A stretch of 62,636 bases of DNA, filler included, from Rhabdomonas costata (Eukaryota): the NCBI GenBank assembly GCA_019059605.1. It is 20 parts of 20 records of this genome, joined end to end, with 100 filler letters (N's around TTAATTAATTAA, not from the genome) between each part and the next. Parts side by side here need not be neighbours in the genome. Positions count along the whole stretch, not along the records: positions 1 to 3,028 come from JAHMHO010001517.1; 19 more parts are not named here. One strand, 5' to 3'. The translations under genes and the position numbers were made by a program. How positions within the stretch are numbered: position 1 is the stretch's first letter; each line of letters starts with the position of its first letter. Under the pieces are notes generated by a model. It saw only the letters and a program-made list of their open reading frames with translations, had not been told where the DNA came from and did not search any database. This document shows, piece after piece, positions 1-3,028 of the stretch.

Positions 1-2
1 AA

Positions 3-3000
3 GAATAATCCAATATTTGCATTGTAAGTACATAATGTCATAATTGTTACTCCACTTATTGTTACTGCACTAAAAGTAGTTCCATTATCAAAACTTCTAT
101 AAGCACCATATGATCCACGACAGAATAACAATGTATTGCCGTTACAACAACAATTTTGAAAAGGAGAACCGTCTCCAACAAAACCAGCATTAGACCATGT
201 AATACCGTCAGAACTTTTTATAACTGCACTTGATCCTCCACCATAAAATGTAGTTCCATTGTACATGGCCCACATGACTCCACCAGTTGCATTTGTTCCT
301 ACAGTCCATGTAATACCATCATAACTGTATAACATTCCTCTTGGTGTTGGTGATAAGAATTTATCTTTTAGATAAACAATATTATCATATGCTATTGAAT
401 CAGATATTGGTACAATCGATGTGTAATTAGACGTTGTAGCTTTATTAAATATATATCCATCAGCACTGGTATAAACACTATCTGTAGTAAGAGCAACATA
501 CACATTATTACCATATGCTATTCTACTAAAGGCAACAGAACTATATAATAATGTCTTACTGGCTGGATTTGATGAGAAATAATAAAGACCACCGGTTGAA
601 CATAAACAGATGACCATCGTTTTATTTGCTTTAAGTACATCATTTGTACTTATATTTGATAAACTAACGTCTATCAAAGAACTGTGAACAAGATTTGTAT
701 TTGTCCATTTAGATGTTGTTGTATTATACATTAAAGTATTTGTAGATTGCAAGTTACTTGTAGATATATCACTGAGATAACTTGTACTTAATTGAGTCCA
801 AGATGGACTAGTTCCATTTGAAGTAAGAGCATAACCAGAAGTTTGAGAATTACTAGATGCTACAATAGTGCCACTATAATCAGGAGCAGTTAATGTTCTT
901 GTTTGACCACTTGATATTCCAGATAGTTGAAATTGTAATTTCTTAGTTCCATCAACATCATCTTTAATAAAGAAAATATTATCAGGAATTGTATCACTAT
1001 TAACCCATTTAGAAGCAGATGAAGAATAAACAAGTAAATTACCATCAGCAATAGAAGATAATGAAACATCCGAACATGAAGATACATTTGTTACTGGTGT
1101 TGAATTAATCCATTTTGTGCCAACATATTGTAATATTTGACCAGATGATGGAGAAGATAGAACAACATCATTTACAGAATATTGTAAAGAGATATTTGGT
1201 TTTGTTGTATTTAATAATAAAGTTGTATTTGCAATAATTCTAGTTACAATACTATTTGAATAAGGAATCATATATAGATATTTACCATCATAACCACCAG
1301 TTAAAAATCCTTTACTTAACGTATTAACAGTACTTGTATCAAAAGAAGAATATGAAGCTGGATTTGTGAATGGTAAAGTTGTATCATATTTACAGATAAA
1401 ACCGAAATCATATGTTCCATTACCTCGTGTATCAGGTTGACTTGTAATTAAATAGATATATCTTCCATCAAAAACAATATTGGCCCAGCCCATTACACCA
1501 ACACCAAAGTTTCCATATGTACTATAAACTGTATATGAACTTGATGATATAAAAGATAAAGTTGTATCATAACGAATGATTGTTCCATAATTAACTGAAG
1601 AAGCAAAATAAAGATATTTACCGTCAAATACACCATTTGAATAAGGACAAGATCCTCCATCAACTGTAAATGTTGTATATGAACTTGATGATGTAAATGA
1701 TAAAGTTGTATCATATCGAACAATATTATTATATGCATTGACTGAGAAATAAAGATATCGACCATCAAATACACCACCACAGAACTGTTTGTTACTTGCA
1801 TTTAAAGTTGTCATATCAAAGAAAGAATATGAACTTGAAGAAGTGAATGATAAACTTGTATCATAACGAGTGACTTGACCATTAGCATAAGGTATATAAT
1901 AGATATATTTTCCATCAAATAATGCACCACGGAAAGATGTACAATTTGTATTTACAGTTGTTGCATCAAAGATTTCATATGAACTTGCAGAAGTAAATGA
2001 TAAAGTTGTATTATATCTTGTCATATATCCATTGCTATTAGGTGCTACATATATGTATTTACCATCAAATACACCACCATAATAATTTTTACTATATGCA
2101 CTTAAAGTTGTAAGATCAAAACCGGAATATGAATTTGAATCAGAGAATGAAGAAGTTGTGTCATGTCTTACAAGTTGTTTACCATTATATGGAACAAAAT
2201 AGATATATCGTCCATCAAAAATACTGCCAGTAAAACCATTGCCATTTGTAGTTATACTTGATACAGTAGAAATATCAAATGATGATGTATTATCACTAGA
2301 AAGTGCAATATATGGTAAAGTAACGGATTGCCAAGTAGCAGATGATGAACTTGTTGCCATTAGAACTTGACCATTAGTTGGTGCCAAAGCAGATGAAATA
2401 TCAATATTTGATGTCGCAGATTTAAGAGAATTTGCCATTACATCATTTGATGAATCAACTAATTTTTTGTTAGTTAAAGTTTGAACATTAGTATCTCCAA
2501 CAAGGACACAAGAGGCATCAGGAACAGTTAAAATTCTTGTTTGACCACTTGTAATTTCTGATAATGACAGTTGTACTTTCTTAGTTTTATCTGTACTATT
2601 TTCTAAAGTAAATACAGTATCTAATAATGCACTTGAATTTATCCATTTACTAGAAGCAGAATCATAAATAAGTAATTGATTATTTGATACAGACGTGATA
2701 TTCACGTCACTTAAAGAAACACTTAACAATCCAGTTGTATTTTTCCATTTGCTCGTTGCATTATCATAAACGAGTAATTGATGATCTTGTGGAGACGTGA
2801 TTTTCACGTCTCCTAAAGAAACACTTAATAATCCGGATGTATTGATCCATTTATTAGATATAGAATCATAAATAAGTAATTGATGATTTAGCGGCGATGT
2901 AATCGCTACATCACCGATAGATACACTTAATAATCCTGTTGAATTAATCCATTTACTAGATGAATAATCATATACTAATAATTGTCGATCAGTTGGCGAA

Positions 3001-3026
3001 GTAATATTTACATCAGACAACAAAAC
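3..3026 (-). CDS. Large repeat-rich fibre/structural protein, probably viral (partial at both ends, 1008 codons, no introns)
   Basis: Hand translation of the minus frame gives no stop from 3026 to 3. It contains ~34-aa repeats (LSDVNITS..NQLLIYD...SKWIN), two TKK[VL]Q.LS.I.SGQTR.LT.PD motifs, seven [FY]DG[RK]Y[IL]Y repeats of ~50 aa, and Asp-box motifs (YSYDGITW, KSSDGITW, RSFDNGTTF). The contig is strongly AT-rich, unlike all others. Confidence 0.8.
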
Positions 3027-3028
3027 AC

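Follow-up and report, generated by a model that had tools for sequence, protein, structure and literature searches.

A stop-free 1008-codon frame on an AT-rich contig of the Rhabdomonas costata assembly as a probable gene fragment encoding a modular fibre of virions or an adhesin

The window, by which we mean the whole stretch of 62,636 nucleotides analysed here, consists of 20 contigs of about 3 kb each from the Rhabdomonas costata assembly GCA_019059605.1, joined by spacers (N44 + TTAATTAATTAA + N44). Contig 1 (positions 1-3028) is filled by a single uninterrupted frame on the minus strand (3..3026), referred to below as P0001. An earlier note on this DNA had reported a stop-free frame of 1008 codons, and this is confirmed, with the correction that the frame lies on the minus strand. 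The other five frames of the contig hold 50-125 stops, and from base composition the probability of zero stops over 1008 codons is about 1e-35. The frame extends past both contig ends, and the fragment therefore lacks the start and stop codons as well as the N- and C-terminus of the protein. It is the sole content of the contig, which carries no hallmark gene. The GC content of contig 1 is 30.5%, with a GC3 of 12%. The remaining 19 contigs range from 48.8 to 54.8% GC, so that contig 1 is the only AT-rich one of the 20 and its composition is as unlike the others as the earlier note had claimed. The label of host contigs given to these others fits as well, as one of them encodes a YTH domain and just 6 ORFs of at least 220 aa are present in their 59.5 kb. 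A search of the window against Rfam returned no matches. That P0001 is a eukaryotic host gene was considered and rejected because of the gap of about 20 points in GC, the low GC3 and the finding of zero eukaryotic relatives among the matches. Contig 1 is not ordinary host DNA, and it needs either a viral flag in the assembly or a check for being an endogenous viral element.

The modules of P0001 occur in the order that had been claimed (shaft, hinge, seven repeats, shaft, second hinge, Asp-box-like motifs), with the following limits.

3..3026, minus strand: single frame P0001, 1008 codons, open at both contig ends
2613..3026, minus strand: shaft 1 (aa 1-138), a 34-residue repeat in four copies, of the type L.DV.ITSP...QLL.YD...SKW.N
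2307..2612, minus strand: hinge module 1 (aa 139-240), with D.TKK..SGQTR.LT.PD, TLTNKK and a shaft-like strand, in that order
1191..2306, minus strand: seven-bladed beta-propeller (aa 241-612), seven repeats of about 50 residues, AlphaFold2 model
1017..1190, minus strand: shaft 2 (aa 613-670), a pair of shaft repeats that follows the linker R-I-I-A-N
657..1016, minus strand: hinge module 2 (aa 671-790), with one or two degenerate copies of the shaft repeat behind it
3..656, minus strand: all-beta region at the C-terminus (aa 791-1008), bearing four Asp-box-like S.DG..W motifs

The shaft repeats, four plus two in number and each of 34 residues, are visible in the DNA of shaft 1 as a tandem array (TRF period 102 bp, 3.6 copies, 75% matches), and one end of the contig falls within this array. 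Since the contig starts inside the gene, within the shaft repeats, an N-terminal anchor is absent from the fragment. The hinge motif D.TKK..SGQTR.LT.PD is found at aa 146-170 and again at aa 692-716, and the second hinge is 46% identical to the first over 71 aa. The propeller repeats follow the consensus [FY]DG[RK]Y.Y..P.....RYDT..SF...SY..FD, with [FY]DG[RK]Y at aa 270, 320, 370, 420, 467, 519 and 579. The count of seven FDG[RK]Y repeats thus stands, although the seventh reads YDGKY. With the entire P0001 as query, Pfam gave only a sub-threshold match to Hepsin-SRCR, NCBIfam gave nothing and a sequence search of the PDB gave no meaningful match.

The AlphaFold2 model of aa 241-612 (pLDDT 88.9) contains 28 strands arranged in 7 blades of four. 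Its best match among solved structures is the Vgb lyase 2z2n (Z 32.4, rmsd 2.0 Å, 287 residues aligned), and 3vgz is matched with a Z of 29.0. The fold is therefore that of the YVTN/NHL-type propellers (Vgb lyase 2z2n, YncE 3vgz, Lp49 3bws), but the identity to these proteins is only 11-15% and the Atlas lead to Vgb_lyase (PF24684) scored just 0.80. Nothing points to lyase chemistry for this propeller, as a common fold shows no function. The FDGRY propeller represents a very large family: with full-length P0001 as query, 5167 clusters (50% identity) were matched, mostly via this module, and it is matched by 151 of the 173 relatives that were retrieved. The family has no model in Pfam or NCBIfam, both of which were searched, and the published literature yielded no relevant mention of it under its FDGRY-type motif strings.

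The C-terminal region is more divergent. The canonical Asp-box consensus is S-x-D-x-G-x-T-W, and three of the four motifs in P0001 (aa 854, 901, 938 and 978) are one residue shorter. As in BNR/Asp-box propellers (sialidase-type, Ycf48, DUF6242_C), in which S.DG.TW motifs are likewise some 40-50 residues apart, these motifs alternate with a strand of the YGN.. type. P0001 differs from them in its shorter motif, its truncation and the failure of Pfam to match BNR (PF02012) or DUF6242_C (PF25852) at E values up to 1. When aa 791-1008 was used as its own query, 7 weak homologues were found, of which 3 carry PF25852. In the size range of 554-1764 aa, 0 of 2509 candidate proteins scored for the C-terminal domain. 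The Atlas feature score for BNR/DUF6242_C clusters was 0.92, and the all-beta model of the region, with a pLDDT of only 57, matched propellers exclusively, including GH74 and Ycf48. We conclude that the C-terminus is probably a divergent BNR/DUF6242-type propeller, truncated by the contig end. The description of this region as Asp-box repeats accordingly holds at the level of motif and feature, but not for the Pfam BNR model.

Five PHROG families match the shaft repeats and hinge of P0001, among them 9627, 24501 and 29752 with shaft 1 and phrog_13925 with hinge module 2, and similar shaft repeats are present in a phage tail-fibre ORF (L006). Hinge module 1 is 57-59% identical to the fibres of two metagenomic loci, L034 and L036, and hinge module 2 is 54.6% identical to the fibre of a third, L035, over 163 aa and 60.6% identical to the protein P0012 over 109 aa. 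When three copies of aa 100-245 were modelled together, the predicted homotrimer score was 0.94, compared with 0.01 for the best of 3 controls. In the calibration, which refers to two copies, not three, 21 of 30 proteins solved as same-chain pairs reached the mark used for this score, as against 0 of 23 single-chain structures, and a pass may reflect memory of solved fibres. The partner pLDDT in the trimer model was 91-92, with about 560 contacts, and the runs agreed in at least 97% of contacts. The model thus predicts that shaft and hinge module form an intertwined homotrimer. The tail-fibre chaperones Peptidase_S74 and Peptidase_G2 occur as partner domains in relatives (P0005, P0011). A Pfam search of the available 1008 aa found neither of these C-terminal chaperones, but the fragment stops short of the gene's 3' end.

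That contig 1 holds part of a single gene, and that the product is a modular fibre of virions or an adhesin, as the earlier note had proposed, is well supported by the predicted trimer, by the virion-gene context of the relatives and by published PLV (Polinton-like virus) fibres. We suggest that it would be an internal gene fragment of a homotrimeric virion fibre, a receptor-binding protein, of an AT-rich dsDNA virus that was co-sequenced with the eukaryote, the fibre gene itself not being eukaryotic. In such a fibre the 34-residue shaft repeats and the TKK/SGQTR/TLTNK hinges are predicted to wind three chains into a thin fibre, a seven-bladed FDGRY propeller would loop out of each chain in mid-fibre, and each chain would end in a second, BNR-like propeller. 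The propellers may serve as lectin-like heads that bind glycans of the host-cell surface, and the missing N-terminus would anchor the fibre to a tail or capsid. We assign this mechanism a probability of roughly 0.8, whatever the class of virus.

Relatives of the modules sit in virion gene clusters of tailed phages, with phage hallmarks in 11 records. Among viral and metagenome loci whose neighbours were scanned, tailed-phage hallmarks were found in 7 of 9, a tally that is biased because IMG/VR is rich in phages. In L034 a 1778-aa fibre, the hinge of which is 56.9% identical to P0001 over 167 aa, is encoded directly downstream of a Phage_capsid_2 gene (1.4e-44), and an 896-aa tail protein matches phrog_376 (3e-75). 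L036 is a podovirus-like sibling of this locus, with a capsid that is 89% identical. Close to the L001 propeller (45% identical) lie head/protease and tail-spike families, and the T4-like L017 encodes head, sheath and long tail-fibre proteins. Other hallmarks are a terminase (L002), portals (L004, and L023 together with a protease) and a head protein (L005), and Terminase_6N is present in three of five further hinge-bearing records. The contexts of L050-L066 are classed by two Pfam families only, because 18 marker proteins found no match there. The tail fibres of the uncultured tailed phages L001 and L017 are like P0001 in that a complete seven-bladed propeller is placed between shaft modules, and their genes adjoin head and tail genes; P0001 differs from such fibres with plugged-in propellers in having its own propeller family, hinge and shaft repeat. 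None of the phage loci that were fetched combines the FDGRY propeller with a shaft and hinge of the P0001 type, and among the retrieved relatives this combination occurs only in P0007 and P0032. When P0001 was compared by tblastn with 50,697 phage records, only the hinge motif of 50-60 residues was found, in 19 records. In one of these, Rhodobacter phage RcWhiteOak, the motif lies in a hypothetical protein among replication genes, a setting that is uninformative.

P0007 is the only retrieved protein collinear with the whole of P0001 (33% over 683 aa, 1e-79), and its N- and C-termini are shared with the fibre of L035 (36% over 472 aa, 1.5e-61). L035 is a 19-kb contig with a GC content of 30.8%, nearer to that of contig 1 than are L034 (35.9%) and L036 (39.2%). 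No phage hallmark was detected among its ORFs (10 searched against PHROGs, 11 against Pfam). A 241-aa ORF matches Phospholip_A2_4 (2.1e-8, above the cut-off) and, weakly, Adeno_PX at its C-terminus (0.16); a PLA2 plus pX architecture is described, in a passage of PMC8502044, for polinton/adintovirus virion modules. A 223-aa ORF has Walker A and B motifs, read by eye, and is a candidate ATPase; neither it nor a 550-aa ORF has a match in phages, PHROGs, Pfam or the PDB. The capsid candidate of L035 has no relative in IMG/VR, the PDB or the phage records, the candidate ATPase and a 149-aa candidate protease gave nothing useful in the PDB, and none of 13 L035 proteins matched any of the other 47 loci by tblastn. 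L035 also encodes an HNH_3 endonuclease and a peptidase that matches a PHROG, and fibre modules as well as a C-terminal domain are common to it and the podovirus-like pair L034 and L036. From the PLA2 and pX-like protein and the Walker motifs, L035 looks Polinton-like. Neither codon usage (RSCU r of contig 1 0.93 to L034 and 0.89 to L035) nor tetranucleotide frequencies (0.39 and 0.42, respectively) discriminate between the two. According to passages of PMC12220804 on PLV fibres, these proteins are modular in the manner of phage fibres and exceed 1000 aa, repeated binding domains being joined to phage-fibre modules, as in P0001, and to the partner domains Laminin_G_3, Peptidase_S74 and YadA-head. 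All three domains are present among the relatives of P0001, but none in its available 1008 aa, and those same passages make no mention of the FDGRY propeller or the TKK/SGQTR hinge.

The class of virus is not settled by 3 kb, because the closest shaft and hinge modules (55-60%) are found both in podovirus-like phage and in L035. Of the giant virus, virophage/PLV and phage proposed in the earlier note, phage and PLV are about equally open and a giant virus is the least likely. The leading reading, which we hold at a little short of even odds, is that the gene belongs to a tailed phage or a prophage whose host, a bacterium of low GC, was associated with the sample. The contexts of L034, L036, L001 and L017, the Peptidase_S74/G2 partners and the tailspike-type neighbour described below argue for it; the lack of a hallmark on contig 1, the collinearity with P0007 and its L035-type termini, the GC match of L035 and the restriction of the tblastn result to the hinge motif argue against it. 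The less likely alternative that P0001 is a fibre of the eukaryote's own Polinton-like or virophage-type (MELD) virus, integrated or episomal, is consistent with the presence of contig 1 in a eukaryotic assembly (as judged from the YTH domain), with its GC and GC3, with P0007 as sole collinear relative, with the PLA2 and pX-like ORF (PMC8502044) and the matchless Walker-motif and 550-aa ORFs of L035, and with the recurrence among P0001 matches of partner domains from the PLV fibres in the cited passages of PMC12220804. The fibre would then stand at capsid vertices and bind a eukaryotic cell or a giant-virus particle, the mechanism being otherwise unchanged. However, L035, the capsid of which is putative, may instead represent a tailless virus that infects bacteria; it carries the same metagenome prefix as L036 and the hinges of the two are 60% identical, which is easier to explain by one bacterial host; and the propeller of P0001 is nearer to phage and MAG (metagenome-assembled genome) proteins (43-54% identity) than to P0007 (33%). 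Should L035-type elements infect prokaryotes, P0001 might be a fibre of a non-tailed double-jelly-roll virus of bacteria. We consider this improbable. It would account for a locus that lacks tailed-phage hallmarks and yet shares fibre modules and a C-terminal domain with L034 and L036, and the HNH_3 endonuclease and PHROG-matching peptidase would fit. Against it, the candidate proteins of L035 have no match in the 50,697 phage records, which we take to include tectiviruses and corticoviruses, and a PLA2 of parvovirus type that ends in a pX-like tail is, according to a passage of PMC8502044, a feature of polinton/adintovirus modules of eukaryotes.

A virus-free origin, in which P0001 would be an adhesin on the surface of an AT-rich bacterial cell, be it a symbiont or a contaminant, is very unlikely. 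The earlier note had taken best matches and co-binned contigs of a cellular bacterium, lacking viral hallmark genes, to speak against a virus, and here the results are divided: some strong propeller matches are labelled as MAG proteins of Verrucomicrobia and Parachlamydiales, but in the single MAG context examined a K1-lyase_C gene, of phage tailspike type, adjoins the relative. Twelve GTDB genomes of many phyla hold relatives, and there are proteins of some 430 aa, with a signal or lipobox-like sequence at the N-terminus, that contain nothing but the FDGRY propeller. However, 11 of the 12 were recognized via the propeller, and the GTDB scan gave no hinge match and a sole, weak shaft match of 21 residues (L048, 3e-4). 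Further, the shaft and hinge relatives of known context are all viral, and just one of the 20 contigs in the window is AT-rich. Least probable is an origin in a giant virus (Nucleocytoviricota), as a protein of its fibres or fibrils. Many giant viruses are AT-rich, and the composition would suit them; Capsid_NCLDV (PF04451) genes are present in 2 of the 18 IMG/VR records tested that hold relatives, both with FDGRY-type repeats inside an MCP-like ORF of about 1010 aa; and the best BFVD fold matches are collagen-repeat proteins of Klosneuvirus and Hokovirus (E 2.5e-17, TM 0.68, 17% identity). Yet the sequence matches on these NCLDV-type contigs are distant (28-33% identity, E 1e-9 to 6e-8) and confined to the propeller, fold matches of a propeller are generic, none of the 10 hinge-bearing records has an NCLDV-type capsid and no shaft or hinge relative lies on an NCLDV-type contig.

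Whether a tailed phage, our leading reading, or another virus is the source, fibre modules of 55-60% identity are common to a podovirus-like contig and to one with polinton-type virion genes. It is rather doubtful, more so than a PLV origin as such, that a PLV of this eukaryote combines an unnamed, very abundant FDGRY propeller with shaft and hinge modules that tailed phages occurring alongside it share at 55-60% identity; if it does, receptor-binding modules would have been exchanged recently between bacterial and eukaryotic viruses. The FDGRY propeller itself occurs in fibres of phages, as a protein presumably secreted by bacteria and as an insert in the capsid protein of NCLDV-type viruses. 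Because of its size, the sharing of modules and the NCLDV-type inserts, the family offers a good handle on cross-realm trade in host-binding parts. Among the Atlas neighbours of both propellers of P0001, which serve as leads only, the commonest taxon is Uroviricota.

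Contig 1 (positions 1-3028) has a GC content of 30.5%, as against 48.8%-54.8% in the remaining 19 contigs of the window, each of about 3 kb and separated by artificial spacers. The features of contig 1 and its product P0001, together with one ORF from another contig, are as follows.

3..3026, minus strand: P0001 frame, open across the whole of contig 1, 1008 codons
aa 1-138: shaft 1, four 34-residue repeats
aa 146-170: hinge 1, D.TKK..SGQTR.LT.PD, followed by TLTNKK
aa 270, 320, 370, 420, 467, 519, 579: [FY]DG[RK]Y motifs of seven repeats, about 50 residues each
between propeller and hinge 2: shaft 2, two further shaft repeats
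aa 692-716: hinge 2, 46% identical to hinge 1 across 71 residues
aa 854, 901, 938, 978: four S.DG..W-type motifs of the all-beta C-terminal region
window 21907-22528, minus strand: ORF with a YTH (m6A-reader) domain, E 2.2e-16

The remaining five frames of contig 1 contain 50 to 125 stops each, and from base composition a stop-free run of 1008 codons has a probability of about 1e-35. The long open frame of deviant composition described in the earlier note was thus borne out. Because the frame passes both contig ends, the gene must be longer than the contig, one end of which falls within the 102-bp tandem array (3.6 copies) encoding shaft 1. The remaining contigs look eukaryotic. Only six ORFs of at least 220 aa are present in the 59.5 kb outside contig 1, and the YTH ORF, which lies on a 50%-GC contig, marks the contigs around it as eukaryotic. 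In P0001, Ser, Thr and Asn are abundant. The module order proposed earlier stands, but the strand (minus) and minor details required correction; for example, the seventh propeller repeat (aa 579) reads YDGKY.

The FDGRY region, folded from an alignment of 54 single-domain relatives, was modelled as a seven-bladed propeller with four-stranded blades (pLDDT 88.9, pTM 0.89). Its best solved match is virginiamycin B lyase (Z 32.4, rmsd 2.0, 287 aligned residues, 11% identity), followed by hydrazine synthase, Lp49, YncE and WD40 proteins, all of which are generic seven-bladed propellers. The propeller matched no Pfam or NCBIfam model, and a text search of the literature with its motif strings found no relevant mention. 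The C-terminal model, built from only seven weak homologues, is all-beta with a pLDDT of 57, and its structure matches are solely propellers, including GH74 and Ycf48. An Atlas feature score of 0.92, together with PF25852 on three of the seven homologues, points to a region of BNR/DUF6242 type. For the Asp-box repeats of the earlier note, support is confined to the S.DG..W-type motifs and these features; the Pfam BNR model did not match P0001.

When aa 100-245, spanning one shaft repeat and hinge 1, was folded as three copies, the trimer score was 0.94 and the best of the three controls reached 0.01, although a passing score may reflect memory of solved fibres. In the calibration, which used two copies, 21 of 30 solved homomers and none of 23 solved monomers passed the mark. 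With a pLDDT of 91-92 and contacts that agree by at least 97% between runs, this segment is predicted to form an intertwined trimer. We consider the fibre mechanism well supported, at a probability of about 0.8; contig 1 belongs to a kind already known, viral fibres of modular build with propellers plugged in. The predicted trimer and the virion-gene contexts of relatives support the earlier fibre reading, which was right in kind; giant virus, virophage or Polinton-like virus (PLV), and phage were the classes it offered.

A word-based search with P0001 returned 30 proteins, and an exhaustive search 5167 clusters at E <=0.001 (836 at E <=1e-30). When the six modules were mapped by BLAST onto 173 retrieved proteins, the propeller matched 151, hinge 1 16, hinge 2 14, shaft 1 11, shaft 2 10 and the C-terminal region none. 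Of the retrieved proteins, P0007 alone runs collinear with the query from shaft 1 to hinge 2 (33% over 683 aa, 1e-79). In P0032 (3606 aa), seven propellers occur together with shaft repeats, and others terminate in Peptidase_S74 or Peptidase_G2, domains that serve as chaperones in phage tail fibres and spikes. The main interest lies in the unnamed, abundant FDGRY propeller and in fibre modules common to very different viruses.

The nearest shaft and hinge modules occur both in a podovirus-like phage and in L035, a 19-kb metagenome contig. In the phage locus L034, a Phage_capsid_2 gene (1.4e-44) precedes that of a 1778-aa fibre, whose hinge is 56.9% identical to the query across 167 aa, and an 896-aa tail protein (phrog_376, 3e-75) is encoded close by; its sibling L036 is 89% identical in the capsid and 75% in the fibre. 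L001 encodes a 1311-aa protein, 45% identical to the query propeller, among head/protease and tail-spike families, and T4-like L017 carries a major head protein, sheath and long tail fibres. Hallmarks were also found in L002 (terminase), L004 (portal), L005 (head protein) and L023 (portal and protease), and Terminase_6N in three of five additional hinge-bearing IMG/VR records. Among nine viral or metagenome loci with neighbours scanned, seven had tailed-phage hallmarks, a tally to be read with the skew of IMG/VR to phages in mind; there were none in the two ORFs scanned at L029 or among the scanned neighbours of L035. We favour a tailed phage as the virus class, at somewhat less than even odds.

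L035 is probably a Polinton-like virus. Its GC content (30.8%) is the closest to that of contig 1; codon usage and tetranucleotides do not tell it from L034. Both strands carry genes (L035:1-13806), including a 1264-aa fibre 54.6% identical to query hinge 2 across 163 aa, and P0007 shares the N- and C-termini of this fibre. A 241-aa ORF matches Phospholip_A2_4 (2.1e-8, above cut-off) and, weakly at its C-terminus, Adeno_PX (0.16), and a passage of PMC8502044 describes PLA2 and pX combined in this way in the virion modules of polintons/adintoviruses. Walker A and B motifs were read by eye in a 223-aa ORF; a 550-aa ORF had no match in IMG/VR, PDB, Pfam, PHROGs or phage records. A papain-type peptidase and an HNH_3 endonuclease are also encoded. 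Passages of PMC12220804 credit PLVs with bacteriophage-like modular fibres of >1000 aa, and in part of a Tetraselmis preprint the conserved structural genes of PLVs include one for a tail-fibre protein. A Polinton-like origin of contig 1 comes second in probability to a tailed phage. L035 and L036 share fibre modules (up to 60% identity) and a metagenome prefix, and the host of L035 might be bacterial; some other prokaryotic virus is an unlikely source.

For a giant virus, collagen-repeat proteins of Klosneuvirus and Hokovirus head the BFVD fold matches, and Capsid_NCLDV (PF04451) was found in two of 18 IMG/VR records tested, which contain these ORFs of about 1010 aa:

L009:8357-11386: major capsid protein (MCP)-like ORF with FDGRY-type repeats
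L015:8315-11347: MCP-like ORF with FDGRY-type repeats

Each matches Capsid_NCLDV at its ends, carries about four repeats in the middle (for example STFDGRYIYF and CGFDGKYIYY) and adjoins MCP paralogues of the ordinary kind, about 350 aa long; the arrangement resembles a propeller-like insertion within a major capsid protein of giant-virus type. These repeats are remote from the query (28-33% identity), and a giant-virus origin is the most improbable of those considered. A cellular adhesin is scarcely more credible. Many relatives of about 430 aa have nothing but a propeller after an N-terminus that is signal- or lipobox-like; some giant propeller proteins bear Verrucomicrobia or Parachlamydiales MAG labels. 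Eleven of the 12 loci matched in GTDB (one genome per species) were found via the propeller, and the remaining one, L048, matched weakly over 21 residues of shaft.

Among these 430-aa relatives, P0073, P0080, P0084, P0085 and similar proteins are bacterial-looking, with one propeller and a G-S-F-L end, and appear to form a secreted, cellular arm of the FDGRY family. On a Verrucomicrobia MAG contig (L037:876-12028), the single MAG context scanned, a gene for a 3104-aa multi-propeller FDGRY protein is followed by one whose 608-aa product carries the tailspike domain K1-lyase_C, and then by glycosyltransferases, Fic and HipA; the region may represent the end of a prophage or an island of phage origin. 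The hinge motif is also matched over 50-60 residues (49-54% identity) by gp12 of Rhodobacter phage RcWhiteOak (L049:5665-6810), a hypothetical protein sited among replication genes; the match recurs across 18 phages of Rhodobacter and one of Rhodococcus.
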